From Escherichia phage vB_EcoM-P3322: a DNA stretch of 64,000 bases. A program made the position numbers and the translations under genes. Positions 17,358 to 57,081 of the stretch are shown piece by piece (the first letter of the stretch is position 1; each line of letters opens with the position of its first letter). Location: sequence record PV191315.1; one strand, written 5' to 3'. A model generated the notes under the pieces. It made no database searches. It was not told the origin of the DNA and saw only the letters and a program-made list of their open reading frames with translations.

Positions 17358-17435
17358 CTTCTTTTCCTCTTTGTGGGCTTGCTGTATTGCTCGCCCTACG
17401 CAATAACTATAAGTTAACAGGAGAAATAAAGCAAG

Positions 17436-17669
17436 CTATTTTTTATAAAATTTTTCTGCTGTGATATTCTTCCCAGTAGGCTTAACCACTTGCAAGATCT
17501 TATCATGTGCCGAACGTCCAAAAGAGTAAGATCCGTACACGGTAAACCAATAATCCCCGTTCGGTTGAACGGTTACGGCGGCGTACGGTGTACCTCTTTC
17601 ATTATCCCCGATGAAGTGAGAAACATTACCGTTAACATTTGGTTTAGTGCTTTTAATTTGTTCGATCAT
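17436..17669 (-). CDS. hypothetical protein
   Basis: 77-aa ORF, AGGAG RBS, preceded by promoter-hairpin module. Confidence 0.5.
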   Translation of the reverse strand: MIEQIKSTKPNVNGNVSHFIGDNERGTPYAAVTVQPNGDYWFTVYGSYSFGRSAHDKILQVVKPTGKNITAEKFYKK

Positions 17670-17687
17670 GATATGACTCCTAAATCA

Positions 17688-17746
17688 GGCGGGAAACATT
17701 CCCGCCCTACGTGATAAATGATAATGTAAGCGTGATCCGGTGTCAA
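17688..17746 (-). promoter_or_regulatory. promoter + 5' GC-hairpin module
   Basis: rc: TTGACA (17741-17746), ~17-nt spacer, -10, then CACGTAGGGCGGGAATGTTTCCCGCC hairpin. Confidence 0.55.
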
Positions 17747-17880
17747 TAGGTAGGATTGTAAAGATTTGATAGTTTATCTCTTTGATGTTTTGTTGTTTGA
17801 TAGATGTTAGCTATCAATATATAGCGGGGTCGTCCGGTGATTATCTTCCCCTGCTCCCAGGTGCCGCCCGTTCAATAAGT

Positions 17881-17913: not shown

Positions 17914-17921
17914 TATTTATC

Positions 17922-18056: not shown

Positions 18057-18058
18057 GG

Positions 18059-18343: not shown

Positions 18344-18398
18344 GTGTCTATCCTCTTCCTATTGCGTTTAATGGGGGCGTTACCGCCCTGCTTATGGT

Positions 18399-18635
18399 TT
18401 ATTGATTGATGTTATAATGAAAATTATTTTCTTCAATAGCTTTTAAAATAAAAGCCGTGATCGCTTTCGTGTCTACTTGTTCGAACGTATCAGAATAGCA
18501 CCAATAATAATCATCCCCTACTTTCGGCGGGTAAACCTGGACAAGGAGATCGCCACCTGGTTGATCTATAAGCTCAACATGCAAGCCGGATGATTCAGCG
18601 GTTTTAACGGCGGTTAATACTGTTGCAATACTCAT
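18399..18635 (-). CDS. hypothetical protein
   Basis: 78-aa ORF; GC hairpin 18651-18666 in 5' leader. Confidence 0.5.
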   Translation of the reverse strand: MSIATVLTAVKTAESSGLHVELIDQPGGDLLVQVYPPKVGDDYYWCYSDTFEQVDTKAITAFILKAIEENNFHYNINQ

Positions 18636-18679
18636 AATCTTTTCCTTTCTGATGTGGGGCGTTGCCGCCCCTTTGTTGA

Positions 18680-18979
18680 TTAGATCGCTGTTTCCAGTAG
18701 TTCGGCTAACGTCTTACCGCCTGATAGTTGGTCTAACGTTTGCTCTTCTGGCAAGAAATTAGCTGATATTAATCCGACTTGATTTCCTTTGTGCCAATTA
18801 GCTTGACGGATGATTCCATCCTTTAAAGATTTTACCGCCATTGTGCAACCGTCGCCAAATGATTCATTTTTATGATCCATCACTTCATAAGCGCCCAGCT
18901 TGCTACTGTTAGGCACCATTAACGCGAATACATCACCAACAACCAGTTTTTCTACGGTAATAATAGCGATAGTTTCCAT
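18680..18979 (-). CDS. hypothetical protein
   Basis: 99-aa ORF, GAGGA RBS, module upstream. Confidence 0.5.
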   Translation of the reverse strand: METIAIITVEKLVVGDVFALMVPNSSKLGAYEVMDHKNESFGDGCTMAVKSLKDGIIRQANWHKGNQVGLISANFLPEEQTLDQLSGGKTLAELLETAI

Positions 18980-19007
18980 TTTACTTTCCTCATTATCGGC
19001 GGCACCA

Positions 19008-19064
19008 TTGCCGCCCTACGTGGTAAATATTAGCACACTGGCGATCTGTGTCAATACTTTTTAT
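19008..19064 (-). promoter_or_regulatory. promoter + 5' GC-hairpin module
   Basis: rc: TTGACA, 17-nt spacer, TAATAT, CACGTAGGGCGGCAATGGTGCCGCC. Confidence 0.55.
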
Positions 19065-19447
19065 TCAATATAAATCAAATTATCTTCACCAATGTAAGCC
19101 GACACGTTCGGCATAAACTTAGCTGCATTGGTTAGGCGGTTGGCTGTGTTAGTGGTGTATATTTCAGGGCGATCCCAAAAGCCTACGCCGTGACCGTTAC
19201 GGGTAAAATGTAAATCATTCCCGATCTGGTTGGCTGTTGCGCCGTCGCTCATTGCCTCAGAGATAGCGGCAAGATTAGCATTAATAAAGGCTGTTACATC
19301 CTGGGCGATCCGTTGATCTGCGCTAGGAGAAAAATCATAATCGTCTAAGTTATCAATAAAATTACCTTCATGATCCCTTGCTGATTCAGCAAAAATAAAG
19401 GCTTCTTTATAGCCGTTGATGATTTCAATAATGATTTCTGTTTTCAT
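19061..19447 (-). CDS. hypothetical protein
   Basis: 128-aa ORF. Confidence 0.55.
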   Translation of the reverse strand: MKTEIIIEIINGYKEAFIFAESARDHEGNFIDNLDDYDFSPSADQRIAQDVTAFINANLAAISEAMSDGATANQIGNDLHFTRNGHGVGFWDRPEIYTTNTANRLTNAAKFMPNVSAYIGEDNLIYIE

Positions 19448-19668
19448 GCTGTACGCTCGACAATAATAATAGTTTGCGGGATCTCGTTTTCTACTACTAA
19501 CAAGGCTTTTTTCTGTGTGATAGATATTTTAACACGTTGTAAAGTAGCGGTAAAATCTTTCATTTCATTATGCGCGGATTTAGTACAATGCCAGATCTCA
19601 GGCTTACCAACTTGTAAGCCGCGTAAAAATTCCGTTTTGCCTGTTTTGTTCGTGATCATTTGTTTCAC
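19444..19668 (-). CDS. hypothetical protein
   Basis: 74-aa ORF. Confidence 0.5.
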   Translation of the reverse strand: MKQMITNKTGKTEFLRGLQVGKPEIWHCTKSAHNEMKDFTATLQRVKISITQKKALLVVENEIPQTIIIVERTA

Positions 19669-19669
19669 C

Positions 19670-19774
19670 TTAACCGATACCGTGGGAAGATAGGATCATA
19701 TTAGCCATAGTTGCAACTACTCCAACCGATAACGCCAGGCCAACCACTGCAACCGTGAAAATTTTCTCTAACAT
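19670..19774 (-). CDS. small hydrophobic peptide
   Basis: 34-aa ORF (MLEKIFTVAVVGLALSVGVV...) directly downstream of a module; track ORF extended through the promoter. Confidence 0.3.
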   Translation of the reverse strand: MLEKIFTVAVVGLALSVGVVATMANMILSSHGIG

Positions 19775-19793
19775 GATTCTACCCTCATTAATG

Positions 19794-19854
19794 GGCGTTG
19801 CACCATTGCCCCGCCCTACGTAATACACTTTACTAGATAACAAATTATTGTCAA
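19794..19854 (-). promoter_or_regulatory. promoter + 5' GC-hairpin module
   Basis: rc: TTGACA (19849-19854), -10, TACGTAGGGCGGGGCAATGGTGCAACGCCC. Confidence 0.5.
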
Positions 19855-19995
19855 GCTTTATTTTACTTCCCAAACGGAAAATTCGCTGCCTGTTGGGATC
19901 ATTTTTTTAATCTTGTTTGCTGCCGCTACCAGGTCAACGGCTTGTACTGTAATAATATAACCAATTGTCGAGGCTGTTGCGTTGAAAGTTTTCAT
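19816..19995 (-). CDS. hypothetical small protein
   Basis: 59-aa ORF (MKTFNATASTIGY...), AAGGG RBS; 3' end overlaps downstream module. Confidence 0.35.
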
Positions 19996-20014
19996 TATAT
20001 TGCCCTTTAATACA

Positions 20015-20037
20015 GGCGGGATTAATCCCGCCTTTTT
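20015..20037 (+). terminator. terminator-like hairpin (plus-strand orientation)
   Basis: GGCGGGATTAATCCCGCC followed by TTTTTG on plus strand, inside minus-strand block. Confidence 0.4.
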
Positions 20038-20039
20038 GA

Positions 20040-20210
20040 TTACTCTTCATTATCGCCGTTATAGTATTCAATGCCGTTTTCATCGGTTACGGTGATGTTA
20101 ACGCCACCGATAGCAACACGATCACGGGCAAACGTCATAGCTTCATTTAAATCTTCAGACCAAAAAATATTGTGACCTTTGCGCGATACATAAAACATAG
20201 TCGGGATCAT
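20040..20210 (-). CDS. hypothetical small protein
   Basis: Start at internal ATG (rc 20208-20210, MIPTMFYVSRKG); longer track ORF would run through the upstream module. Confidence 0.45.
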   Translation of the reverse strand: MIPTMFYVSRKGHNIFWSEDLNEAMTFARDRVAIGGVNITVTDENGIEYYNGDNEE

Positions 20211-20232
20211 GATTTGTTTCTCTTCTGTTATG

Positions 20233-20293
20233 AGCGGTGGACCATTCCGCCGCCCTATGTGGTAAACTTTACTACGTTGTTTGCCTGCTGTCA
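20233..20293 (-). promoter_or_regulatory. promoter + 5' GC-hairpin module
   Basis: rc: TTGACA (20288-20293), -10, CACATAGGGCGGCGGAATGGTCCACCGC. Confidence 0.5.
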
Positions 20294-20295
20294 AA

Positions 20296-20580
20296 CTATT
20301 TTTTAATGTTTTGCCCTACAAAATCGATCACTTCCTTAAGCTGTCTCTCTGTCATGATCGTACCTGGTAACTCTTCTTTAATTTCTTCCGGTAAATAGAT
20401 ATTACCGCGCCAGGTTAACAAACAACCGTTTTGATCTTCGCAGATAGAATAAGAAAACATCCACTCGCAATCATTTTCAAGCTCCCAAAAACACAAAAAG
20501 TCTTCTTTCCCTAAGTTTTCAACGGTTAAACATAATCCGCGACGTGCTGCATAATTAGTTAGGCTTTTTGTGATTTTCAT
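20296..20580 (-). CDS. hypothetical protein
   Basis: Start at internal ATG (rc 20578-20580, MKITKSLTNY). Confidence 0.5.
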   Translation of the reverse strand: MKITKSLTNYAARRGLCLTVENLGKEDFLCFWELENDCEWMFSYSICEDQNGCLLTWRGNIYLPEEIKEELPGTIMTERQLKEVIDFVGQNIKK

Positions 20581-20599
20581 GATTTTTCTCTCTTCTTGT

Positions 20600-20657
20600 G
20601 AGCGGCACCATTGCCGCCCTACAAGATACATATTACCAGATTAAGCGGACTTGTCAA
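20600..20657 (-). promoter_or_regulatory. promoter + 5' GC-hairpin module
   Basis: rc: TTGACA (20652-20657), TAATAT, TTGTAGGGCGGCAATGGTGCCGCTC. Confidence 0.55.
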
Positions 20658-20658
20658 A

Positions 20659-20769
20659 CTATTTTTTCTTTTTCTTTGCTTTCAATCGTCTAAGGTTACG
20701 GCTGGACTTATTGCGCAAGGCGCTTAGATCGTCGTACCCTTTCCATGCTTGCATATCTTTCGGATTCAT
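20659..20769 (-). CDS. small basic protein
   Basis: 36-aa ORF (MNPKDMQAWKGY...KAKKKKK) with AAGGGGA RBS. Confidence 0.35.
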   Translation of the reverse strand: MNPKDMQAWKGYDDLSALRNKSSRNLRRLKAKKKKK

Positions 20770-20778
20770 GTTATCCCC

Positions 20779-20940
20779 TTACTTGTTAGCCGGATCATAT
20801 ACCAGGACCGCGCCGCTTGCTTTCACGCTTTCCGCTTCATAGTTGCGCAGATCGTTTTCTGTAAGATTGAGCGCGATCACTTCCTCGATCTCAACGCCAG
20901 CGGCAAGGGCGATCTCTTTGATAATATCTGTTGTTTTCAT
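20779..20940 (-). CDS. hypothetical small protein
   Basis: Start at internal ATG (rc 20938-20940, MKTTDIIKEI). Confidence 0.4.
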   Translation of the reverse strand: MKTTDIIKEIALAAGVEIEEVIALNLTENDLRNYEAESVKASGAVLVYDPANK

Positions 20941-20950
20941 GGTGTGCACC

Positions 20951-21070
20951 TTATAAGATGATTGATAAGATAGTGACAACGAAAGCGATTATACTGATGG
21001 CAAATGTCATCTTTTTACCTTCGGATACTGCCGGATTTTCTACCGTGTATTCTACTGTGTACTTGCTCAT
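20951..21070 (-). CDS. small membrane peptide
   Basis: 39-aa ORF with C-terminal TM segment FAISIIAFVVTILSIIL. Confidence 0.35.
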   Translation of the reverse strand: MSKYTVEYTVENPAVSEGKKMTFAISIIAFVVTILSIIL

Positions 21071-21093
21071 CGTGTAATCCTCTCGTTTGCTTT

Positions 21094-21150
21094 GGGAACT
21101 ATTCCCGCCGCCCTATGAATTAAATATACACTATCTCAAAATGATTGCAA
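21094..21150 (-). promoter_or_regulatory. promoter + 5' GC-hairpin module (TTGCAA -35 variant)
   Basis: rc: TTGCAA, -10, TTCATAGGGCGGCGGGAATAGTTCCC. Confidence 0.5.
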
Positions 21151-21168
21151 GCCTTTTTCTAAATTATT

Positions 21169-21453
21169 TTATTCAGTAAACAAACCATCATTTACAACGG
21201 CGGCGATGATCTCCCGTGCCATTGATTCAGGGAAAGGGGCGCTATAGTCCTGGCTTGTCTCATCGGTATCGGTGATCCAATGATAAGCTAACGAGTAAAA
21301 GCCTTTACTAACTGTTTTCAGTGAGATGATGATCACTCGGTCAAGCTTATTGGTGAATGTTGCCGTTAATGTGTTACCCTCCTGCGTCATGTTGGACAAG
21401 TAAGCGAGATCATTAATCAGGGAAAACATTAGCACGGTGTTAGCTTTACTCAT
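21169..21453 (-). CDS. hypothetical protein
   Basis: Start at internal ATG (rc 21451-21453, MSKANTVLMF) with GAGGA RBS. Confidence 0.5.
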   Translation of the reverse strand: MSKANTVLMFSLINDLAYLSNMTQEGNTLTATFTNKLDRVIIISLKTVSKGFYSLAYHWITDTDETSQDYSAPFPESMAREIIAAVVNDGLFTE

Positions 21454-21471
21454 GATTGCATCCTCAAAGGG

Positions 21472-21530
21472 GCGCGGCACCATTGCCGCCCTACACGATA
21501 ACTATAACACAATGTAAAACAGGGTCAACC
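21472..21530 (-). promoter_or_regulatory. promoter + 5' GC-hairpin module
   Basis: rc: TTGACC, TATAGT, TATCGTGTAGGGCGGCAATGGTGCCGCGCC. Confidence 0.5.
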
Positions 21531-21731
21531 TTTATTTTTCCACGGTGTCAGCTTGTTAATCATTGGTGATAAATAGCGTTTACCAACGTAAAACAGTACG
21601 CCAACTGATGCAACGGCGGCGACCTCATGCATAGCCGACGGGAAACGGGTATCATAATAAGATCCAATAATAGCAATAGCGGCAACGGCTGCAACGTCGA
21701 TAATGATTTTCTCTTGTTTTGCGGTGATCAT
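21525..21731 (-). CDS. small membrane protein
   Basis: 68 aa with two hydrophobic segments. Confidence 0.5.
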   Translation of the reverse strand: MITAKQEKIIIDVAAVAAIAIIGSYYDTRFPSAMHEVAAVASVGVLFYVGKRYLSPMINKLTPWKNKG

Positions 21732-21752
21732 AGTATTTACCTTTTTGTATGG

Positions 21753-21810
21753 TGGGGAACTATTCCCCGCCTGATGTAATACAGTTTAACAGGTCCGGTT
21801 ATGGTGTCAA
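21753..21810 (-). promoter_or_regulatory. promoter + 5' GC-hairpin module
   Basis: rc: TTGACA (21805-21810), -10, ACATCAGGCGGGGAATAGTTCCCCACC. Confidence 0.5.
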
Positions 21811-21816
21811 CCACTT

Positions 21817-22002
21817 TTAAAGATATTTTATGCTAATGACGTTTTCAGGTTTTACCTTGTTATAATGTGCATCAACATAGATCAAACCATCGTCAGAAAA
21901 GCCCAGGATCACGCCCTGCGCGATAAAACCGTACTCGTCACGGTAACGCACGGCTATTTTTAATGTTGCGTTGTAGGCTGTTTTAAGCTCGTTTAAAGTC
22001 AT
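21817..22002 (-). CDS. hypothetical protein
   Basis: 61-aa ORF. Confidence 0.45.
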   Translation of the reverse strand: MTLNELKTAYNATLKIAVRYRDEYGFIAQGVILGFSDDGLIYVDAHYNKVKPENVISIKYL

Positions 22003-22021
22003 TTTTGTTTATCCTCTACAT

Positions 22022-22051
22022 GTAAAAAGAAAGGGCGCTTGATGCGCCCTT
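22022..22051 (-). terminator. intrinsic terminator
   Basis: AAGGGCGCATCAAGCGCCCTT hairpin followed on minus strand by TTCTTTTTAC. Confidence 0.6.
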
Positions 22052-22057
22052 GTTATG

Positions 22058-22204
22058 TTAATCCTCTAAATCCATCCAATTATATTTGTCACTCTTCCCG
22101 CGCTTTGTTTTATTACGCTTGTCACCTTTGCGGATCACTTCCTCGTTCCAGGCCTTGCGGATCTTGGAAGATTGAATTTTTTCTGCGCGATTAGATGTAT
22201 TCAT
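22058..22204 (-). CDS. small basic protein
   Basis: 48-aa ORF (MNTSNRAEKIQSSKIRK...) between module and terminator. Confidence 0.4.
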   Translation of the reverse strand: MNTSNRAEKIQSSKIRKAWNEEVIRKGDKRNKTKRGKSDKYNWMDLED

Positions 22205-22221
22205 TTTGTTTCCTCTTTATA

Positions 22222-22277
22222 TGAGCGGCACCATTGCCGCTATATTGTTAATTTAAACTGTTTTGTAAAATTGTCAA
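22222..22277 (-). promoter_or_regulatory. promoter + 5' GC-hairpin module
   Basis: rc: TTGACA (22272-22277), spacer, -10, TAGCGGCAATGGTGCCGCTC. Confidence 0.5.
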
Positions 22278-22283
22278 GGTTTA

Positions 22284-22637
22284 TCATTCATAAGAGCAAG
22301 CAAGGATCACGCCTGCAATATAAAGCCAATAATTTTCCCTTTCTCGTTGGATTTTATCATCGCTGCTATTCTCTTTAATGTATCCCCAGGATGTTAACAA
22401 GCGATCAATTTCCCAATATTCGAAAGCTATATTAATATCTGATGGCAAACCTTGTAACCATGATGCAAGTGCTTTAACAATACTATAATTAAAACGTGAT
22501 TGATTATCAGGGTACCAGTACTCGGAATTAAAACGGCGCATCAATTCCGCGATCTTCTCTTTTTCGGTTGTAATACCGTAATCATTAAAATCGATAGCGG
22601 CAAGGATGTACTCTTTAATTGCATTTTGTGCTTTCAT
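22284..22637 (-). CDS. hypothetical protein
   Basis: 117-aa ORF. Confidence 0.5.
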   Translation of the reverse strand: MKAQNAIKEYILAAIDFNDYGITTEKEKIAELMRRFNSEYWYPDNQSRFNYSIVKALASWLQGLPSDINIAFEYWEIDRLLTSWGYIKENSSDDKIQRERENYWLYIAGVILACSYE

Positions 22638-22654
22638 GGTCTTTCTCTCTTTTT

Positions 22655-22712
22655 AGCGGGAACTATTCCCGCCCTACGTGTAACAGTTTACTGAAAATTA
22701 AATCCGTGTCAA
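22655..22712 (-). promoter_or_regulatory. promoter + 5' GC-hairpin module
   Basis: rc: TTGACA (22707-22712), -10, CACGTAGGGCGGGAATAGTTCCCGCT. Confidence 0.55.
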
Positions 22713-22715
22713 GCT

Positions 22716-22937
22716 TTATTTTGTTACTACCATTTGGTACCCTGTTTCAATGTTAGTAAATACTGTTATCCCGTCCTGGCGTTCACTCATTAGCATACAA
22801 GGCGCTAACATCCTTTCTACTGCCTTGCACTCATTGTAAACGGCGGTTATGTCTCCTGCGGCCTTGTCTTCTGTGGTGAATGTATCGTTTATGTAAACTT
22901 GACTAGCGACAACGGCGACAATAGCGAAAGTGATCAT
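22716..22937 (-). CDS. hypothetical protein with hydrophobic N-terminus
   Basis: 73 aa; MITFAIVAVVASQVY signal/anchor-like start. Confidence 0.5.
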   Translation of the reverse strand: MITFAIVAVVASQVYINDTFTTEDKAAGDITAVYNECKAVERMLAPCMLMSERQDGITVFTNIETGYQMVVTK

Positions 22938-23010
22938 GATATTTTTCTCTTTATGTGTTTCTATTAGTTGATATTACAGCAATTCGCAGATTATTTTTTA
23001 GCAATTCGTG

Positions 23011-23229
23011 CTATTTACTCATAACAGTATCGAAAACAAATTTTTCTTTGTTGTCAAAGCTCACGTATCCGATTCTACCACGCAAGCCGCAAGTAGTGCC
23101 GTATTCGTAACCGTCAAGACCTTTAACCTTCCAATCCACGCCCATTAAAACCGCATTATATTTCTGACCAACTACAAACGCGCCACCAGTTGATTCAATG
23201 CAAACAACTTTAATTTTACGGATTGCCAT
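23011..23229 (-). CDS. hypothetical protein
   Basis: 72-aa ORF. Confidence 0.5.
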   Translation of the reverse strand: MAIRKIKVVCIESTGGAFVVGQKYNAVLMGVDWKVKGLDGYEYGTTCGLRGRIGYVSFDNKEKFVFDTVMSK

Positions 23230-23265
23230 TTTCTTTCTCTCTTTCTGGTGATTGGTTTCTCTTCT

Positions 23266-23305
23266 CTATAGCGCCCATTGTAAGGCGCTATAACGAAAAG
23301 TCAAC
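23266..23305 (-). promoter_or_regulatory. promoter with palindrome spanning the -10
   Basis: rc: GTTGAC -35, 16-nt spacer, TACAAT; 9-bp arms TATAGCGCC...GGCGCTATA (23266-23291) flank the -10. Confidence 0.45.
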
Positions 23306-23307
23306 GA

Positions 23308-23475
23308 TTATTTTTTAAGGCTTAAAGTACCTAACTTGTCAGCATGACGCAGACCAGGGAATATCCATTTGCCTGACTCATCTTTCACCGGGGCTTTAAG
23401 CGTAGCGCCCAGGTTGGCGGCGTTAACTTTACGTGCAACGTTGCGAGCGGCTTCACGGGTAGCGAAAGTGATCAT
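23308..23475 (-). CDS. hypothetical small protein
   Basis: 55-aa ORF (MITFATREAARNVARKV...). Confidence 0.4.
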   Translation of the reverse strand: MITFATREAARNVARKVNAANLGATLKAPVKDESGKWIFPGLRHADKLGTLSLKK

Positions 23476-23499
23476 GGTGTTTTCCTCTTCTCTTTGTTA

Positions 23500-23561
23500 G
23501 GCGGTGGACCATTCCGCCGCCTTGATGTAATACAGTTTACTTTATTTTATTAAGATTGCAA
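23500..23561 (-). promoter_or_regulatory. promoter + 5' GC-hairpin module (TTGCAA variant)
   Basis: rc: TTGCAA, -10, CATCAAGGCGGCGGAATGGTCCACCGCC. Confidence 0.5.
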
Positions 23562-23567
23562 GCGGTT

Positions 23568-23783
23568 TTATGAAATAATTGTCAAAGTAAAATCATAAGA
23601 CTGATTTAATTTATATTGTACTTTATTGCCGTAGTAGTCACCTTTACGTAAAGATCCGCGAATACCTATCACATCCTTTACATCTTTAAGATTTTTTACG
23701 CCTGTAATGTCTTTATTGAAATACTCGTCATCTGAAAATAAAACTTGACTTGCATTTTTTAACAGTGTACGGATATTAGCCAT
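23568..23783 (-). CDS. hypothetical protein
   Basis: 71-aa ORF. Confidence 0.45.
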   Translation of the reverse strand: MANIRTLLKNASQVLFSDDEYFNKDITGVKNLKDVKDVIGIRGSLRKGDYYGNKVQYKLNQSYDFTLTIIS

Positions 23784-23806
23784 CGTGATAATCTCTCTTC
23801 TGTTGT

Positions 23807-23864
23807 GAGCGGCACTATTGCCGCCCTACGTAATACAGTTTACTCTTTTTCTTTCCGGTGTCAA
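23807..23864 (-). promoter_or_regulatory. promoter + 5' GC-hairpin module
   Basis: rc: TTGACA (23859-23864), -10, TACGTAGGGCGGCAATAGTGCCGCTC. Confidence 0.55.
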
Positions 23865-23873
23865 CAATCTTTT

Positions 23874-24101
23874 TCAGATTAATTCATCCAGGCATAACAG
23901 GCGATCAACGTTGAGATCGGTTAGGCTGATGGTTGGCACCTGGTAGGATTCGATGTACTCGACGCTTGCATATTCCCCAAAATTAGCAACAGCCCACTTA
24001 TTCAAGATCTCACATACATCATTAATCTTTTTGTTTGTTACAACTGCAATGACCTGGGAAGTGCCAACGGTGCCGGATACGCGAACAATATTGATAGCCA
24101 T
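23874..24101 (-). CDS. hypothetical protein
   Basis: 75-aa ORF. Confidence 0.45.
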   Translation of the reverse strand: MAINIVRVSGTVGTSQVIAVVTNKKINDVCEILNKWAVANFGEYASVEYIESYQVPTISLTDLNVDRLLCLDELI

Positions 24102-24122
24102 AATCTTTAATCTCTCTGTTTT

Positions 24123-24182
24123 GGCGGGAAACCACTTCCCGCCCTATGTGATACATCTTACACTAATTTTAAACGTTGTCAA
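24123..24182 (-). promoter_or_regulatory. promoter + 5' GC-hairpin module
   Basis: rc: TTGACA (24177-24182), TAAGAT-type -10, CACATAGGGCGGGAAGTGGTTTCCCGCC. Confidence 0.55.
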
Positions 24183-24191
24183 CTGTTTTTA

Positions 24192-24431
24192 TTACATTCC
24201 AACCATCGCGGCACGGATCGCAGTAGTGCTATATTTGAAACCGTCTGGCGTTTTATCTTGTCCAGTTTGTTCCAGAAAAAGCATCATATCCCGCGCCGCA
24301 TCATTACGATTAGCATTAGCGTTAATAAAATCTTGGGCCAACCGGTATAACGATTCATCGTTATTAATCCAAAGGCTTACATTCCAATGAGTTTTGTTTT
24401 TGTGACCGTTGTACATTTTAGATTTAGCCAT
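24192..24431 (-). CDS. hypothetical protein
   Basis: 79-aa ORF. Confidence 0.45.
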   Translation of the reverse strand: MAKSKMYNGHKNKTHWNVSLWINNDESLYRLAQDFINANANRNDAARDMMLFLEQTGQDKTPDGFKYSTTAIRAAMVGM

Positions 24432-24465
24432 GATTTTTCTCTCTTTTTCAGTGAGGCGGGAAGTG

Positions 24466-24514
24466 TTCCCGCTCTCTATGTAATACAGTTTACTCTTTTT
24501 ATTCGTGCTGTCAA
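24466..24514 (-). promoter_or_regulatory. promoter + 5' GC-hairpin module
   Basis: rc: TTGACA (24509-24514), -10, CATAGAGAGCGGGAACACTTCCCGCC. Confidence 0.5.
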
Positions 24515-24520
24515 TGCTTT

Positions 24521-24886
24521 TTATAAATCTTTTTTACGTTTTACATCGCTCGCATGACTGTATACAGTGATCCCATTGTCACGGCAAAAACGGGAAAGAT
24601 ACGCGCCGCGTGAAAACTCTTTACCTTCCATATTAATAACCTTGCTAAATTCTTCTAGGGCAACGGTATCAAAATGATCCCCATAGCCATATTGAAACGG
24701 AACGTTAACTACTTCGATCAGTTTACCGCCGATCTCAACATCAACCATCAAAGAGAAATAAGTATTACCATAAGACTTTTGAAACCAGCGACGGGCGCTA
24801 ATATGTACCGCTTCAATGCTGGATAGTTCAATTTTAGCAGTGTTAGCCAGGGTAGCATAAGCAGAAACATTGATATTTTTAGCCAT
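24521..24886 (-). CDS. hypothetical protein
   Basis: 121-aa ORF; degenerate module upstream (24890-24975). Confidence 0.5.
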   Translation of the reverse strand: MAKNINVSAYATLANTAKIELSSIEAVHISARRWFQKSYGNTYFSLMVDVEIGGKLIEVVNVPFQYGYGDHFDTVALEEFSKVINMEGKEFSRGAYLSRFCRDNGITVYSHASDVKRKKDL

Positions 24887-24981
24887 AGTCTTTAATCTCT
24901 TTTGATTAGTTAGGAGTATTCCCGATAAAAGTTATTATGCTTATACTATCACTCATTGTCAATAGTATAAGACTAAAACTT

Positions 24982-25161
24982 TTAACGATAATCGTTATAG
25001 GCTTTATTGACCTGGCGAATGTAACATTCGAAAGCAAGATCAATGTATTCGTATTCACGCACATAATCACCATAGGTCACTACATACATTTTTAAAGTTT
25101 CCTCATAAGCCAGGAGGATCGAATCTAAACCTATAATCTCAGTTTTTGCAATGATAGCCAT
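24982..25161 (-). CDS. hypothetical small protein
   Basis: 59-aa ORF (MAIIAKTEIIGLD...). Confidence 0.4.
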   Translation of the reverse strand: MAIIAKTEIIGLDSILLAYEETLKMYVVTYGDYVREYEYIDLAFECYIRQVNKAYNDYR

Positions 25162-25181
25162 GATGTTAACCTTTTATTGTT

Positions 25182-25238
25182 GGCGGCACCATTGCCGCCC
25201 TACGTGATAAACTATACCAGAATTTTAAACAGTGTCAA
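25182..25238 (-). promoter_or_regulatory. promoter + 5' GC-hairpin module
   Basis: rc: TTGACA (25233-25238), 16-nt spacer, TATAGT, CACGTAGGGCGGCAATGGTGCCGCC. Confidence 0.6.
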
Positions 25239-25244
25239 CCGTTT

Positions 25245-25607
25245 TTATTCGTAAATTTTACCGCTTTCGGCCCATACCATAACGCGGCGCATACTATCCC
25301 AAGTGTTTTGATCCAAGTTTAAGCCGTGCAACTCTTCGGTACTTCCCAGACCAGGTACCGCTTTGTTGTAAGTTGCATATAAGCGCCCTTGATACTCATA
25401 CGCCAGAGTAAGATCCGTTTGAATCATCTTTTTAAGCATAGCATTAAGCATCATATTAGCGGCATGTTGATCACGTTTTAGCGGTAACATATCAATAAGG
25501 GCGCGATAAGCTGAAACATGAATATCAACCGTTTCACGTGGTAAATTTTTCATATCATCACGGAAAGATACCAGATTAAACATGATAGTATTGATTTGCT
25601 TGCTCAT
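25245..25607 (-). CDS. hypothetical protein
   Basis: 120-aa ORF. Confidence 0.5.
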   Translation of the reverse strand: MSKQINTIMFNLVSFRDDMKNLPRETVDIHVSAYRALIDMLPLKRDQHAANMMLNAMLKKMIQTDLTLAYEYQGRLYATYNKAVPGLGSTEELHGLNLDQNTWDSMRRVMVWAESGKIYE

Positions 25608-25628
25608 TGTGTTACCCTTTTTTGTTTT

Positions 25629-25689
25629 GGCGGGGAAGTATTCCGCCGCCCTATGTGATACATCTTACCAGATTAAAAAACGTTGTCAA
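25629..25689 (-). promoter_or_regulatory. promoter + 5' GC-hairpin module
   Basis: rc: TTGACA (25684-25689), 16-nt spacer, TAAGAT (25662-25667), CACATAGGGCGGCGGAATACTTCCCCGCC. Confidence 0.6.
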
Positions 25690-25698
25690 GAATATTTT

Positions 25699-25794
25699 TT
25701 AGAAAATAATAACCGCTACTACAACCCAAAATGGAACGGCTAGAATGATAGCGTTAATCGTTCCAACCGTCAAGCTATTTTCTTTATTAATCAT
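25699..25794 (-). CDS. small membrane peptide
   Basis: 31-aa ORF (MINKENSLTVGTINAIILAVPFWVVVAVIIF). Confidence 0.3.
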   Translation of the reverse strand: MINKENSLTVGTINAIILAVPFWVVVAVIIF

Positions 25795-25822
25795 TGTAAG
25801 CCTCTTGCATAATTTCACTATT

Positions 25823-25880
25823 AGCGGCACCATTGCCGCCCTACGTGGTAAATATTATGCCAGTGGCGGCGATATGTCAA
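25823..25880 (-). promoter_or_regulatory. promoter + 5' GC-hairpin module
   Basis: rc: TTGACA (25875-25880), 17-nt spacer, TAATAT, CACGTAGGGCGGCAATGGTGCCGC. Confidence 0.6.
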
Positions 25881-26443
25881 AGACTATTTTCAAAGTTTTC
25901 TAGTGCGATCCTTTTTTCTTCCTCTGTTGGCTGATAATCAGGAAAAGCATCAACACACAACAACGGCGGGATCTCTTCGTACTCTTCCTCTTCCGTTGTC
26001 TCCTCGTCTTCCTCCTGGGCTATGGCTGCAATTTTGGCTAATTTTCTTTCAGCTTGAATCAATTTACCATCAAGTACGTTTTTTGCCATGTTGTAAGCGG
26101 TCCAGGTGATGCGCTTACTTTCCAATGCTTCATCAAGCGCCGCTATCTTGCTGGGGTATTCATCCAGGACACGAAAAGCCGGATCAATTTTGTACAAAGG
26201 ATTATCTTTCGCGCCGTCGCTCGCATCTTCCGCACTGGATAAATCAGCGTTACCATTTGCCAGCCAGCCAGGGCGCACATAACGCGCTTTTACGTTGCCG
26301 TTACTACGTGCTAATCTGTTACCTATTTGCTCACCGCTATATCCCGTGGATTCATCGATAAGATGATCGGGAATGATGCGCGGATCATCTGCTTCATGTT
26401 TTACCCAAGACTGGATCACATATTCGCGGCCCATATTAACCAC
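25877..26443 (-). CDS. hypothetical protein with acidic C-terminal stretch
   Basis: 188 aa; EEDEETTEEEEYEE acidic segment. Confidence 0.55.
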   Translation of the reverse strand: MVNMGREYVIQSWVKHEADDPRIIPDHLIDESTGYSGEQIGNRLARSNGNVKARYVRPGWLANGNADLSSAEDASDGAKDNPLYKIDPAFRVLDEYPSKIAALDEALESKRITWTAYNMAKNVLDGKLIQAERKLAKIAAIAQEEDEETTEEEEYEEIPPLLCVDAFPDYQPTEEEKRIALENFENSL

Positions 26444-26693
26444 CTTTTTTCAACAATTGGCATACTTTAAAAAGACTTGCTGAATCCTTGCAAGGGTAGA
26501 AAGATGTACGATAATCACGTACGCCAACCTTGCGGATCTCGATGTTTTCGCATGTTGTTTGATCAAAGATATTTATTTCATCACGCCCCCTTATATAAAC
26601 ATAGTGGGGATGTATTAACGCATATTTTGCTAATCTGTAAAAAGCGTTATCTTTGAACGCGATCACGTGACCTTTTAATTTGATGTAAAACAT
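26436..26693 (-). CDS. hypothetical protein
   Basis: 85-aa ORF. Confidence 0.45.
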   Translation of the reverse strand: MFYIKLKGHVIAFKDNAFYRLAKYALIHPHYVYIRGRDEINIFDQTTCENIEIRKVGVRDYRTSFYPCKDSASLFKVCQLLKKGG

Positions 26694-26710
26694 TCTACCA
26701 CCTTACAAAT

Positions 26711-26766
26711 AGCGGGAACTATTCCCGCTTTATGTAACATATTAACAAATTATTCGTTAATGTCAA
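26711..26766 (-). promoter_or_regulatory. promoter + 5' GC-hairpin module
   Basis: rc: TTGACA (26761-26766), -10, CATAAAGCGGGAATAGTTCCCGCT. Confidence 0.55.
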
Positions 26767-26769
26767 GCC

Positions 26770-27042
26770 TTAAAGCAAAAACGCTACATCTTGCGCTTTT
26801 AGTGTAGTATCAACCATTTTCGGGCTTTTATAATCAACAAAGCGCGCGGTTTTTTCAATAGCGAAACCGAGATAATCTTGCTTGTTGAAATTACATTCTT
26901 TCTTAAATGTTTCCCGTGCAATGGCAATCGCTGCGTCCAGGGATAAACGCCCGTCAATATTGATATTAGCGAAAGATCCGCCACCGCTCATAGGTTTACC
27001 AGTGGTGCCAGCTACGATCATTGTTGCGCTATATGATGCCAT
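26770..27042 (-). CDS. hypothetical protein
   Basis: 90-aa ORF. Confidence 0.5.
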   Translation of the reverse strand: MASYSATMIVAGTTGKPMSGGGSFANINIDGRLSLDAAIAIARETFKKECNFNKQDYLGFAIEKTARFVDYKSPKMVDTTLKAQDVAFLL

Positions 27043-27067
27043 GATGATAATCTCTCTTCTGTTACGA

Positions 27068-27126
27068 GCGGGAAACCACTTCCCGCCCTATGTGATACAT
27101 CTTATCAGGTTGTTGTTTGTTGTCAA
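27068..27126 (-). promoter_or_regulatory. promoter + 5' GC-hairpin module
   Basis: rc: TTGACA (27121-27126), TAAGAT-type -10, CACATAGGGCGGGAAGTGGTTTCCCGC. Confidence 0.55.
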
Positions 27127-27132
27127 TACTTT

Positions 27133-27330
27133 TTATTCTATCCCTGCAATTTGATTAACGCGCTTGCATTTTGTAGCGTGCTGGTCTTCTGTAATGACTC
27201 CCATTTCTAACAGGGAATCAATGAAAGATAAAACCGTTTCATGATCATCCTGGGGATGACTGAACTCAGTAAAACCGTTTACTATTACGTTGATTTGTCC
27301 AGCTTTCGCCACAATATGCAATGTTGCCAT
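27133..27330 (-). CDS. hypothetical protein
   Basis: 65-aa ORF; unusually long GC-rich 5' leader. Confidence 0.45.
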   Translation of the reverse strand: MATLHIVAKAGQINVIVNGFTEFSHPQDDHETVLSFIDSLLEMGVITEDQHATKCKRVNQIAGIE

Positions 27331-27603
27331 GATCTTAACTCCAGGTGATGAATGATGTTTTTTGTTGGTGGACGGTGGATTATGGAGATCCTCACCTTTG
27401 CCCGTCCTGCATTGCGCCCTCCTGTTGTTTATTGTCGTTGTGCCGCGCCCCCCTCGACAAGATGAATACTACGCTACCAGGCGAGGAACGTCAACCACTT
27501 TTTCAATCTTTTTTATTTTCTTTTTGCTTGCTATATATAAAGGAAAGGGCTATCATCTTTCTACCGCGCCAACCAGGGCGCACAACAAAGAAAGGGCGAC
27601 ACC

Positions 27604-27870
27604 ATGACAAATACTACATTACACCTTATGCACTCATTGGGCTGGCAAGGCGGCACGGTGCACCAGGTAGCAAGCGCAACGGGCTTAAAGGTTGAAACAG
27701 TTCTCAACCTGGGCGATCATAAGGTGGAAGAGATAGACCATTTTGATCCGTTCGCTGATGGTTATTTATGGGCTTGCAGTGGCGGCGGGGAAAGCAAGAT
27801 CCCACCAGGGGCGCGGGGCGATATGCATTTTTGGTTAGGTGTCCTTTCCTGGCAAGAAAACAAAAAATAA
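27604..27870 (+). CDS. hypothetical protein in GC-rich island (uncertain)
   Basis: 88-aa plus-strand ORF with AAGGG RBS and upstream TTGCTA-N17-TATCAT; GC content clearly above surroundings. Confidence 0.3.
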   Translation: MTNTTLHLMHSLGWQGGTVHQVASATGLKVETVLNLGDHKVEEIDHFDPFADGYLWACSGGGESKIPPGARGDMHFWLGVLSWQENKK

Positions 27871-27872
27871 TC

Positions 27873-27901
27873 TTGACAAGCCCAGGGATCGGGCTTATAC
27901 T
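27873..27901 (+). promoter_or_regulatory. strong sigma70-like promoter with operator-like palindrome in spacer
   Basis: TTGACA (27873-27878), 17-nt spacer AGCCCAGGGATCGGGCT, TATACT (27896-27901); GC-rich structured sequence follows, no convincing ORF. Confidence 0.5.
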
Positions 27902-28130
27902 GTTTTACATACAGAAGAGGAAGCGCCACCCCACGGCGTAAAGGCGGGGCTAACATACCAGGGCGCTGGTTGGAAGGTTGATCGCCGGTAGGCTGGGCGC
28001 TATATATTTGTAAAGAAATGTAAAGATAAAATAATCGCTTGCTTTCCTGGCTGGATCTGTTATTCTTATTACATGGCGAGGGGACACGGGAGCGCGAGAC
28101 AAACACCGCCCCTGCGCGTCATTCTCTAAA

Positions 28131-28202
28131 TGAGAATGATTATCATTTACCTTATCAAATAAGAATCAATCTCATTTATAAACCTAAATGCGAATCATTA
28201 TC
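28131..28202. promoter_or_regulatory. pair of Fur-box-like sites
   Basis: GAGAATGATTATCATTTAC and GCGAATCATTATCATTTGC match about 14-15 of 19 positions of GATAATGATAATCATTATC. Confidence 0.35.
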
Positions 28203-28253
28203 ATTTGCATTTCCATATGAGAACTCTTCTCATTCCCATCTGCATAAATTTTT

Positions 28254-28434
28254 GTAAACTTTAAATTTTGCTTTTGTACTTTCATTTTTGTAAAAGCAAA
28301 AAAACTTTAAATACTGTGGGCGCGCAAAATTTTTAAAATTTTCCTTGACTTTTGAGTTTTGTTTTGTATCTAACATTTTAAGATAATTTTCCTAAACTTT
28401 AAATTTTGGTTTTCAACTTTCACTTTTGTAAATT
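28254..28434. repeat. degenerate tandem direct repeat (~138-bp period), iteron-like
   Basis: TAAACTTTAAATTTTGCTTTTGTACTTTCATTTTTGTAAAAGC (28254-28296) vs TAAACTTTAAATTTTGGTTTTCAACTTTCACTTTTGTAAATTC (28392-28434); ATTTGAGATAAC repeated twice nearby. Confidence 0.6.
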
Positions 28435-28674
28435 CTTAAAAAGTTTAAATAATTTGAGGAATTTTTGAGATAACAAGTAGGGGTAATTTGAGATAACCTT
28501 TAATCTTATTGGCAGACCTTCAGGAACCCACCTAGATCGAATCCTAATGATGCAAACTGAAAAAGATAAGTGTTTGTATAGGACAAAATAATAGGCTCTC
28601 TACAGTGTTGTAGGAGCCTTATTTCTGTGCTACAAAGTGACACCTTTGTTCTAAAAATGAAAAAAGTTAAAATA

Positions 28675-36431: not shown

Positions 36432-36489
36432 TTGACTTTTTTCAAAAAATATGCTACCCTAACCCCGAAGGGTCGAGCGATAGCGAGTA
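36432..36489 (+). promoter_or_regulatory. conserved promoter-like element copy B
   Basis: TTGACT (36432-36437), 17-nt spacer, TACCCT (36455-36460), hairpin ACCCCGAAGGGT, box CGAGCGATAGCGAGTA. Confidence 0.5.
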
Positions 36490-36604
36490 TAGATTATGTA
36501 ATAGATTAATCTCTATCGTTAGATGTTCGAAGAACAGAGATTTAAGTACTTGTTCTTATCGGTAGATGATCGTAAGATCAAGAACAATAATAGGAGAGTG
36601 TGTT

Positions 36605-49134: not shown

Positions 49135-49356
49135 ATGGGTGTTTTTGCAGGTATTGTTGCAGTGGTAAGCTTTTTTGTTATTGCTTTTATGCTTAGTTTG
49201 ATTCCAGCTTGGTTACTGTTGCTGGCTTACAACTATGTTGCTGAAGTTATGGGTCATGCAGATATCACTGTCCCAGTAACCTTCTGGACCGTGGTTTGTG
49301 TTTCGTTTATTCTGGCTGTATTACGAGGAATCTTTTCCTCTCATTCAACAAAATAA
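49135..49356 (+). CDS. small membrane protein
   Basis: 73 aa, two TM helices. Confidence 0.5.
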   Translation: MGVFAGIVAVVSFFVIAFMLSLIPAWLLLLAYNYVAEVMGHADITVPVTFWTVVCVSFILAVLRGIFSSHSTK

Positions 49357-49359
49357 GTG

Positions 49360-49418
49360 TTGACATAGTTCTTAAAAAGAGTAAGATGTATCACATGAAG
49401 CGGGGAATAGTTCCCCGC
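49360..49418 (+). promoter_or_regulatory. promoter + 5' GC-hairpin module upstream of terC
   Basis: TTGACA (49360-49365), 16-nt spacer, TAAGAT (49382-49387), GTATCACAT, hairpin GCGGGGAATAGTTCCCCGC; same class as the minus-strand modules. Confidence 0.6.
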
Positions 49419-49435
49419 AAAGAGAGGAGAAAAGA

Positions 49436-50410
49436 ATGCAACTTGGTTTCCCAATTATTGATGTAGTTGTTTTAGTTGGTATTTTAGCATTGTCTATTGG
49501 TATTGATTTCTTTGGTCACAAAGAAAATAAAGAAATTTCATTCAAATCCGCAGTTGGTTGGTCGATCTTTTGGATTGGTGTATCATTAGCTTATTATGGT
49601 TTTGTATACTTCCAACATGGTGCCGATTTTGCTAACTTGTTTTTAAGTGGATATGTGTTGGAAAAATCTTTGTCGGTAGATAACTTGGTAGTATTTGTAG
49701 CAGTATTCGCAAGTTTTGGTATTAAAAGCACACACTTGCAGCACAAGATTCTACTTTGGGGTATTGCAGGTGCGATTGTCTTCCGAGGTGTGTTTGTAGC
49801 AGTAGGCACTTACTTGTTAAGTTTGGGCTGGTATGTTAATATCTTCTTCGGTGCGGTCATCCTTTTCTGTGCAGCTAAAATGGTATTTGCTGGAGATAAT
49901 GACGCAGAAGTTGATTACTCTAAACACTGGGCTACCCGTATTGTTCGTAAACTGTTCCCTGTATCTAATAAAATGGATGGGGAGAAGTTCTTCACAATCG
50001 AAAATGGTGTTCGTGTAGCAACTCCAGCTTTGGTTTGCGTATTCGTGATGGAAATGGTGGATGTAATCTTTGCAGTAGATTCGGTTCCAGCGGTGATCGC
50101 AGTGACACAAGAACCCCTGCTTGTATTCTCTTCGATGTTATGTGCAATCTTAGGTCTACGTGCTCTGTTCTTTGTTCTTAGTGTCGCACTGAAGTATCTG
50201 GTTCACTTGGAGAAAGCAGTTATTGTGGTTCTGGTGTTTGTAGGCGTTAAACTGATGTATCACCCGTTTGCAGAAACATTGCATGAGAAAATGAGTTTCC
50301 TGCCAGCACATATTGATCCAACTATTAGTATGTATATCGTGCTTGGTACTTTGGCCCTTGGTGTTATTGCAAGCTTTATCTTCCCTGAAAAAGAAGAAGC
50401 TACTGTTTAA
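49436..50410 (+). CDS. terC: TerC/Alx-family integral membrane protein
   Basis: Multi-pass membrane protein with YVLEKSLSVDN and FAVDSVPAV...ILGLRALFF signatures. Confidence 0.85.
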   Translation: MQLGFPIIDVVVLVGILALSIGIDFFGHKENKEISFKSAVGWSIFWIGVSLAYYGFVYFQHGADFANLFLSGYVLEKSLSVDNLVVFVAVFASFGIKSTHLQHKILLWGIAGAIVFRGVFVAVGTYLLSLGWYVNIFFGAVILFCAAKMVFAGDNDAEVDYSKHWATRIVRKLFPVSNKMDGEKFFTIENGVRVATPALVCVFVMEMVDVIFAVDSVPAVIAVTQEPLLVFSSMLCAILGLRALFFVLSVALKYLVHLEKAVIVVLVFVGVKLMYHPFAETLHEKMSFLPAHIDPTISMYIVLGTLALGVIASFIFPEKEEATV

Positions 50411-50416
50411 TAAATG

Positions 50417-50440
50417 AGCCTCCTTCGGGAGGCTATTTTA
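50417..50440 (+). terminator. intrinsic terminator
   Basis: AGCCTCCTTCGGGAGGCT hairpin followed by ATTTTAT. Confidence 0.65.
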
Positions 50441-50452
50441 TAGGAGAGACTT

Positions 50453-55928: not shown

Positions 55929-56173
55929 TCGACGAGCTTGCCTCTCAAGTCATAGAAAATTATTGGCGCGAGAGAGAAGCTTTCATTATGCGCAGTCTCA
56001 AAGAGTATTTCATTGGGACTGTGCGAATGGAAGATATTGTAAGTAGAGTAGAGATTCATGTATGGCCTGATTATGAAGAATGGGTTGACAAAGAAAATGA
56101 AAATGCTATAATTCTTCGTATATACAAACCGGAGATAACATTAGGAGGAAGAAGTGTTAAACTTCGAAATTGA
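55925..56173 (+). CDS. hypothetical protein
   Basis: 82-aa ORF. Confidence 0.45.
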   Translation: MIDELASQVIENYWREREAFIMRSLKEYFIGTVRMEDIVSRVEIHVWPDYEEWVDKENENAIILRIYKPEITLGGRSVKLRN

Positions 56174-57059: not shown

Positions 57060-57081
57060 GAGGGGGAGAAATCCCCCTCTT
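57060..57081 (+). terminator. terminator-like hairpin
   Basis: GAGGGGGAGAAATCCCCCTC followed by TTG (weak U-tract). Confidence 0.4.

Follow-up and report, generated by a model that had tools for sequence, protein, structure and literature searches.

A promoter and leader-hairpin cassette of a small-gene array also precedes terC in Escherichia phage vB_EcoM-P3322

We analysed a 64,000-nucleotide (nt) stretch of DNA from Escherichia phage vB_EcoM-P3322 (PV191315.1), here called the window, and concentrated on the element directly upstream of terC, which recurs before the small genes of a minus-strand array at 17.4-27.1 kb. The terC coding sequence (49436..50410, plus strand) starts with the ATG at 49436, encodes 324 residues and matches the Pfam TerC family (PF03741, E=9.9e-39); the gene is named TerC in the annotations of relatives too. 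A 73-residue membrane open reading frame (ORF) ends 79 nt upstream of terC, and the element takes up exactly this gap. On the plus strand it opens with an A-rich, UP-like stretch (49348..49359), of the kind that precedes the -35 hexamer in the array copies, and here this stretch contains the TAA stop codon of the membrane ORF (49354-49356). There follow the -35 hexamer TTGACA (49360..49365), a 16-nt spacer (49366-49381) and the -10 hexamer TAAGAT (49382..49387), which a promoter scan placed 16 nt past the -35. The linker GTATCACATGAA (49388..49399), the predicted initially transcribed region, leads to a hairpin (49400..49418) with an 8-bp stem, GCGGGGAA/TTCCCCGC, and the loop TAG, recovered by folding and covariation. 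After AAA comes the Shine-Dalgarno sequence GAGAGGAG (49422..49429), 6 nt before the ATG. Positions 49348-49435 are a single copy of a ~75-nt cassette comprising an A-rich stretch, a sigma-70 promoter, a linker, a GC-rich hairpin and a Shine-Dalgarno sequence.

An earlier, sequence-only reading had written the promoter, linker and hairpin as one unbroken string. The parts are all present, but the string is not continuous, because GAA (49397-49399) was left out between GTATCACAT (49388-49396, directly 3' of TAAGAT) and the hairpin; array copies carry AG or AGG there. The two hexamers agree with the sigma-70 consensus at 10 of 12 positions, and A2 and T6 of the -10 are present. The predicted fold of the terC 5' untranslated region has an energy of -18.7 kcal/mol (z=-2.9). 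Its minimum-energy form also pairs the Shine-Dalgarno GGAGA with UUUCC of codons 6-7 (49425-49455, plus strand) in a weak helix.

The same reading had claimed that TTGACA-N16-TAAGAT followed by a hairpin upstream of terC matches the minus-strand family. Seven minus-strand copies, all of the other stem class, GGCGGCA-ATGG-TGCCGCC, to which the terC copy does not belong, were used to build a covariance model, and the window was searched with it at full sensitivity with a hit cut-off of E<0.05. The search returned 20 hits, 19 of them on the minus strand within 17371-27138 and one on the plus strand. The plus-strand hit is the terC site (49348-49422), which scores 39.8 bits with E=1.8e-6 and ranks 14th of the 20. 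The next plus-strand match has E=0.056, so the terC site is the only significant plus-strand hit in the window.

The minus-strand modules are spread over the whole array. The highest-scoring are at 25177..25250 (85.7 bits), 18993..19066 (84.1 bits), 20596..20669 (79.6 bits), 23803..23876 (75.6 bits), 25818..25892 (73.7 bits), 21468..21540 (73.2 bits) and 22219..22289 (63.8 bits). Next come 24118..24194 (56.3 bits), 19789..19866 (54 bits), 27062..27138 (53.3 bits), 20228..20306 (50.6 bits), 25624..25701 (48.4 bits) and 22650..22724 (48 bits), followed by 17683..17758 (30.1 bits), 24449..24526 (29.1 bits), 26706..26773 (23 bits) and 21750..21822 (21.7 bits). Two modules have a degenerate -35, one at 23495..23573 (TTGCAA, 21.9 bits) and a weak one at 17371..17446 (19.7 bits, E=0.039). 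A scan for TTGAC-N15-18-TAnnnT combined with folding found ~17 minus-strand copies of a common layout at 17.7-27.2 kb.

The terC copy also shares primary sequence with the array. Four exact occurrences of the 15-mer TAAGATGTATCACAT lie in the window, three on the minus strand (24146, 25653 and 27090) and the fourth at terC (49382, plus strand). The second of these lies in the module at 25624..25701, within which the sequence-only reading had taken 25629-25689 as its comparison copy with the same linker; the sequence there is as it described. Allowing up to 3 mismatches, TAAGATGTATCACAT has 12 matches against 3.2 expected, a number reached in 0 of 100 shuffles. Across the family, [CT]AC[AG]T is conserved in the linker.

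The layout agrees equally well. The terC module has the order and spacing of the array modules, namely an A-rich stretch, TTGACA, N16-17, TAnnnT, a YACRT linker, a GC hairpin and a Shine-Dalgarno sequence. Of the perfect GC hairpins in the window, the 28 strongest include 15, that of terC among them, that sit 8-14 nt past a sigma-70-like -10 on the correct strand. This gap has its mode at 11-12 nt and measures 12 nt at terC, within the 8-14 nt range of the array, while the distance from hairpin to ATG varies between ~17 and 29 nt. With the gap to the -10 near-constant and the distance to the ATG variable, the hairpin appears to be anchored to the promoter and not to the start codon. Recovery of the site by a model built on the array alone, with parts in the same order and spacing, bears out the module alignment that the sequence-only reading had proposed as a check, and confirms the terC element as a true member of the array family.

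The cargo of the array is not repeated. The products of the array genes gave no BLASTP hit to one another at E<0.01, which indicates that the cassette is conserved independently of the genes it precedes and rules out the array repeat as a by-product of gene duplication. We also considered recent gene conversion of the terC module from the array. The module is 59-76% identical to array copies and 72% identical to its phi92 ortholog, and there is no clear signal of conversion.

Two further features of the array hairpins were seen. A variant, GGCGGCGGA-ATGG-TCCACCGCC, found at 20228-20306 and 23495-23573 on the minus strand and in several copies in L011, has a recurrent internal C.A apposition, which is G.U on the opposite strand. 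An exact 20-mer of the array hairpin, TAGGGCGGCAATGGTGCCGC, occurs in IMG/VR beyond the relatives of this phage, in three related GC-rich contigs (L009, 607-626; L010, 2890-2909; L014, 6232-6251). There it lies directly after the stop codon, a TAG, of a 781-residue tape-measure-like gene, and it is probably convergent, coincidental or unrelated.

Conservation of the terC module at the orthologous position extends over Phapecoctavirus, Justusliebigvirus and Klebsiella phages; KP13-16 and L021, both more distantly related, lack the module. Every orthologous terC module has TTGACA or TTGACT as its -35. Five diverged orthologous lineages retain both hexamers and the 16-nt distance between them, with differing spacer sequences. 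The record of phage phAPEC8 labels the site 'putative host dependent promoter determined with MEME'. The terC promoter was thus already annotated; we found no description of the leader hairpin.

Comparison of the orthologous stems shows how the hairpin has changed. The window and PNJ1809-36 have GCGGGGAA/TTCCCCGC, and ZCKP1 has a paired expansion, GCGGGGGGAA/TTCCCCCGC. The stem is GCGGGGA/TCCCCGC with the loop GTGGT in phAPEC8 and phiWec190, GCGGAGGA/TCCTCCGC in phi92, EmilieFrey and two IMG/VR contigs, GGGAGAG/CTCTCCC in the IMG/VR contig L019, GAGGGAG/CTCCCTC in L020 and KP2025, and GAGGGGG/CTCCCTC, with one G.U pair, in phi1_175008. G.U steps occur in the stems of phi1_175008 and phAPEC8. 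The stems of the window, phi92, L019 and L020/KP2025 have diverged and are all fully paired. This implies a minimum of four compensatory double substitutions at a single site that was inherited vertically.

We then combined 53 copies of the module from 14 sources. Standard pairs make up 97.4% of the pair cells, and at six of the seven pairs both partners vary. Covariation scores 0.382, compared with 0.133±0.016 for shuffled alignments (0 of 500 reach it) and ~0.01-0.06 for slid partners. Because the alignment had been fitted to the model, these values are biased in favour of the structure; the orthologs read by hand are independent of it. At the level of sequence evolution, these comparisons demonstrate that the hairpin is under selection for pairing. 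Conservation extends to primary sequence as well. The linker (G/T)TAT(C/T)AC(A/G)TAG and the stem core GCGG(G/C) recur over ~20 copies per genome and across genera, and matches to the module reach Certrevirus and other Vequintavirinae.

The conservation bears on whether the terC copy arose by chance, or is a neutral repeat copy that itself does nothing. In favour of such an origin, this AT-rich genome has many sigma-70-like matches (66 found against 57 expected in 44-64 kb). It is nevertheless disfavoured and very improbable, given the covariance-model E-value of the site, its conservation at the orthologous position, with retained hexamers and compensatory stem changes, in three or more lineages, and the exact fit of the module to the intergenic gap.

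We compared the terC region with other phage genomes and with the rest of the Ter block. The window belongs to a Phapecoctavirus: its positions 48.5-51.5 kb are 99.2% identical to Escherichia phage tuntematon (Phapecoctavirus, Stephanstirmvirinae), and among the 127 phage records that they match, Phapecoctavirus and Justusliebigvirus (phi92-like) predominate. In tuntematon, the covariance model has no significant hit over the remaining 94 kb of the genome, where the best match has E=0.1. In the ~150 kb genome, terC is the only gene outside the array with the module.

Around terC, the Ter block comprises a gene with a weak HAD-like hydrolase match (47159), PRTase_3 (47808), Macro (48544), SprT-like (52036), TelA (52623), vWA-TerF-like (55134) and TerD (56439) genes. 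No promoter-hairpin module precedes the window's PRTase_3, Macro, SprT-like, TelA, vWA-TerF-like or TerD genes. TerD has a 15-nt gap before it, and a consensus promoter without a hairpin lies at 56085-56112. Directly downstream of terC, the terminator scan identified a terminator-like hairpin, AGCCTCC-TTCG-GGAGGCT, followed by ATTTTAT (50417..50441, plus strand; hairpin 50417-50434). This UUCG hairpin is kept in all relatives examined (phi92, KP2025 and IMG/VR sequences), with one compensatory variant, AACCTCC...GGAGGTT. The conserved hairpin after terC and the missing modules at the other Ter genes make it most plausible that the cassette serves terC alone and not the Ter block, driving terC as its own unit. 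The view of the sequence-only reading that the Ter block is wired into the regulatory class of the array is therefore supported for terC, as a conserved member of the family, but is not supported for the block as a whole. Its further suggestion that the block is no silent passenger can be upheld for terC, which belongs to the family, carries the sole copy outside the array and has kept its module, with hexamers and pairing, in several genera. At the far end of the block, a GAAA-loop hairpin, GAGGGGGA-GAAA-TCCCCCTC, lies at 57060-57079 (plus strand), 19 nt past the TerD stop codon and with no long T-run, and may mark where this block ends.

A related distribution is seen in Klebsiella phage KP2025, a distant phage whose terC DNA is ~67% identical. 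Running the model over its whole genome gave non-array hits at three sites, all in the Ter block. One is upstream of terD (E=0.0005; L006, 38782-38857, minus strand), with the hairpin GGGGAGAG-ATGG-CTCTCCCC, and one is upstream of terC (E=0.0023). The third is a weak match (E=0.026) before a small ORF adjoining terC, where a promoter is present with no clear hairpin. The Ter-block hairpins of KP2025 (GAGGGAG and GGGGAGAG) form a subtype distinct from its own array hairpins (GGCGGGAA).

Several known kinds of element were considered for the hairpin. No module hairpin in the window is followed by a T-run on the sense strand. After the terC hairpin (49400-49418) comes AAAGAGAGG, and the terminator scan does not list this hairpin, whereas it does list that at 50417-50434; by these sequence criteria, with no U-rich tract and no scan hit, we reject an intrinsic (Rho-independent) terminator. 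In phage Paula, a 'terminator' on the minus strand that the annotation places across the orthologous hairpin is probably an artefact of the prediction software. A dimeric DNA operator is unlikely, with a loop of 3-7 nt, half-site spacing that is not fixed and stems that change in concert.

Bacterial terC/alx genes are commonly controlled by the yybP-ykoY (Mn2+) riboswitch or pH-responsive leader. The phage arrangement is similar in that a structured 5' leader precedes a TerC-family gene, but the leader is only ~40 nt long and has one simple hairpin. An Rfam scan of the whole window gave no family at its gathering score, and we reject a known RNA family or a yybP-ykoY riboswitch here for want of any Rfam match. 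From its sequence, the phage terC appears to have replaced ligand or pH control by a constitutive early cassette.

The closest described kind of element, on sequence comparison, is the promoter-early stem-loop (PeSL), a cassette of the T4-like phages RB49/phi1, PST and nt-1 (Arbiol et al. 2010, PMC2839356; Comeau et al. 2014, PMC4122927). In E. coli, the promoters of PeSLs proved extremely strong, as found for RB49/phi1 (PMC2839356), and PeSLs mediate cassette shuffling and have stem-loops with terminator-like effects (PMC2839356, PMC4122927). Both kinds of cassette consist of an A/T-rich stretch with an upstream stop codon, a near-consensus sigma-70 early promoter, a stable G/C stem-loop, a Shine-Dalgarno sequence and a start codon. 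Both occur as intergenic copies clustered among small orphan genes with unrelated cargo (here 19 in 17.4-27.1 kb, with the terC copy, in a conserved block, as the exception), and a PeSL subclass with the stem-loop past the -10 has been described. PeSLs also coincide with mosaic boundaries of related phages, and a few such boundaries fall at modules here. The cassette studied here differs in belonging to another lineage (Stephanstirmvirinae, with matches in Vequintavirinae). Its stem-loop is nearly always 11-12 nt past the -10, inside the transcript, whereas that of PeSLs is mostly between or over the hexamers, and it has no terminator-like U tail. Moreover, one copy stands before a conserved functional gene, terC, and evolves by compensatory change.

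The window also contains sigma-70-like promoters with stem-loops in other places. One has AGCCC...GGGCT inside the spacer (27873-27901, plus strand) and another has TATAGCGCC-TTACAAT-GGGCGCTATA around the -10 (23277-23304, minus strand), and both recur in phi92 and KP2025; a third has CCCC-TATTGACA-GGGG around the -35 (16895-16923, minus strand). These spacer, -10 and -35 variants match other PeSL subclasses of RB49/phi1 (PMC2839356).

We lean, with confidence slightly better than even, towards the cassette being a strong sigma-70 early promoter with a stabilizing and insulating leader hairpin for terC. In this proposal, unmodified host RNA polymerase would start ~6-8 nt past TAAGAT, at A49393 or A49395, the purine of the conserved YACRT motif, and terC, in common with the ~19 small genes of the array, would already be transcribed in the first minutes after infection. 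The first ~25 nt of the mRNA would fold into the 8-bp hairpin, which would act in the RNA at 3-4 nt (array) or 5-7 nt (terC) from the predicted 5' end. By analogy, the hairpin would most likely shield the 5' end from 5'-end-dependent decay (RppH, RNase E), and the ribosome site, which starts 3 nt past the stem, would be kept free of upstream structure. The UUCG hairpin and its short U tail would end the unit, giving a short terC mRNA structured at both ends. Over evolution, the repeated cassettes may double as junctions for the exchange of gene cassettes, like PeSLs in T4-like phages.

The analogy is with the ompA and papA leaders, whose 5'-terminal stem-loops stabilize E. coli mRNAs (review PMC3997798, citing Emory 1992, Bouvet & Belasco 1992); that base pairing at the 5' end hinders decay by RppH and RNase E is established (PMC3997798). 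In those leaders, as predicted for the cassette, a short stable hairpin at the mRNA start lies upstream of the ribosome site, where it would hinder RppH and the RNase E 5' sensor. The phage 5' end is, however, a predicted one with perhaps 3-7 nt unpaired, and the hairpin belongs to a multi-copy phage cassette and not to the leader of a single gene.

Several points weigh against a stabilizing leader hairpin. A start at 49393-49395 would leave 5-7 unpaired nt before the terC hairpin, while a protective hairpin reportedly, after Emory et al. in 1992, tolerates ~2-4 unpaired nucleotides. Among the stem appositions, G.T and A.C are nearly balanced (28 and 23), a symmetric count with no strand asymmetry, so that a hairpin in the sense RNA is not separable from one at the DNA level, and one recurrent stem variant keeps a C.A apposition. 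The array linker and stem sequences are kept across genera more than a purely structural role needs. A PeSL stem-loop of RB49 cut expression of a downstream lacZ about as much as a strong terminator (PMC2839356). In the literature on Phapecoctavirus, Justusliebigvirus, rV5 and Certrevirus we found no transcriptome or start-site data. The papers on these phages give lists of sigma-70-like promoters only, with no description of a leader hairpin; arrays of such promoters have been reported for rV5 and Certrevirus (PMC3606486, PMC7344957).

In a different reading, the cassette is a PeSL-type attenuator and recombination cassette. The hairpin would mainly damp or stop transcription from upstream genes, and perhaps its own, leaving each gene under the control of its own promoter, and the repeats would be kept chiefly for shuffling. 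The match in parts to PeSLs (the A-rich stretch with an upstream stop, the sigma-70 consensus promoter, the G/C stem-loop and the Shine-Dalgarno sequence), the subclass with the stem-loop past the -10, the terminator-like behaviour of the RB49 stem-loop and the PeSL-like variants in the window all speak for it.

Mosaicism around the modules points the same way. When the window is compared with a phAPEC8-like contig, homology blocks end at modules (26768, 25246, 24192/24190 and 20663), and homology with phi92 begins inside the terC module, at 49393, beside an ORF indel; these are few cases. A small ORF (phi92 gp183; the 80-residue ORF of KP2025, 589-831) lies between the 73-residue membrane ORF and terC in those phages and is absent from Phapecoctavirus. 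The indel, at 49135-49356 in the window against 519-767 in L003 and 589-831 in L005, abuts the terC module. Nevertheless, no sense-strand U-tract follows any module hairpin, a terminator downstream of its own promoter would abort its own transcript, and at terC an attenuator would cut a co-directional, tightly packed gene block. In addition, compensatory stem evolution at the vertically inherited terC site argues for selection on structure and not on DNA homology only. We regard an attenuator and shuffling role as a minority possibility beside the early promoter with a stabilizing leader.

Conservation of the linker and stem core raises a further reading, in which linker and hairpin are a site for a trans-acting phage or host protein and define a regulon of ~20 early genes plus terC. 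Recognition could be of RNA, through nut/boxB-like antitermination, translational repression or cleavage for early shut-off, or of a DNA palindrome operator at +5 to +25. This reading, which we consider unlikely, would account for conservation across genera despite unrelated cargo, for loops that often contain U-R-G, also in diverged terC orthologs, and for the confinement of module copies to the array and Ter genes. Set against it are the free drift of the terC stem sequence while pairing is kept, the difference between the Ter-block hairpins of KP2025 and those of its own array, and a loop length of 3-7 nt that argues against a dimeric DNA operator. Similarity among array copies is also explicable by recombination between neighbouring copies.

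Such a site has a formal parallel in lambda. A boxA consensus is CGCTCTTTA-like and is followed by a boxB hairpin with a purine-rich pentaloop, and the cassette resembles this boxA-boxB order in having a linear box and then a short hairpin just past the promoter. As in lambda nut and HK022 put, a conserved linear box and a short GC hairpin lie within the first tens of nucleotides of early transcripts. Here, however, the linker GTATCACATGAA is not boxA-like and the loop is TAG, with no GNRA-like pentaloop, and we reject a lambda-type nut site. There are ~20 copies, one per gene, instead of one per operon. An antiterminator would find few sense-strand terminators in the array to act on, and we identified no N- or Q-like factor.

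A more specific form of this reading treats the linker and hairpin as the address tag of a post-transcriptional or promoter-proximal regulon, by which an RNA-binding factor of phage or host would coordinately stabilize, antiterminate, silence or cleave the mRNAs of ~20 early orphan genes and Ter genes. We consider this distinctly doubtful. If true, immediate-early host takeover in an entire group of large enterobacterial myoviruses would have recruited Ter genes and no others of known family.

Under the preferred reading of an early promoter with a leader hairpin, the terC cassette is conserved but fairly ordinary phage wiring and reveals no new mechanism. It ties a gene of known family to the same cis-regulatory cassette as a block of unknown early genes. 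Non-array copies are confined to Ter genes both here and in the distant KP2025, so the link spans several genera. Bacterial Ter proteins have been linked to phage, colicin and tellurite resistance, and the cassette opens a testable route to the timing and purpose of Ter protein expression in these phages. It also extends PeSL-like promoter and stem-loop cassettes beyond T4-like phages and, in practical terms, may be of use in E. coli as a strong, compact promoter and leader with natural insulation.

Finally, we noted other elements in the window. The stretch at ~27340-28670, between the array and the upstream minus-strand genes, contains only short overlapping ORFs and divergent promoter-like sites at 27494 (minus strand) and 27873 (plus strand), and resembles the 'non-coding' box of the rV5 map (PMC3606486). 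For an Srd-like factor near divergent promoters, an idea of the same rV5 paper, only PHROGs of unknown function were matched. A second promoter-like element, distinct from the hairpin module, has the form TTGACTTTTTCA-AAAAA-ATG(C/G)TACCCTAA, followed by a short variable hairpin and CGAGCGA(T/A)AGCGAG. It lies at 1055-1130 and 36432-36505 of the window (both plus strand), occurs also in L007 (~11355, minus strand) and L008 (~15843, minus strand), and is conserved in KP2025 and phi92.

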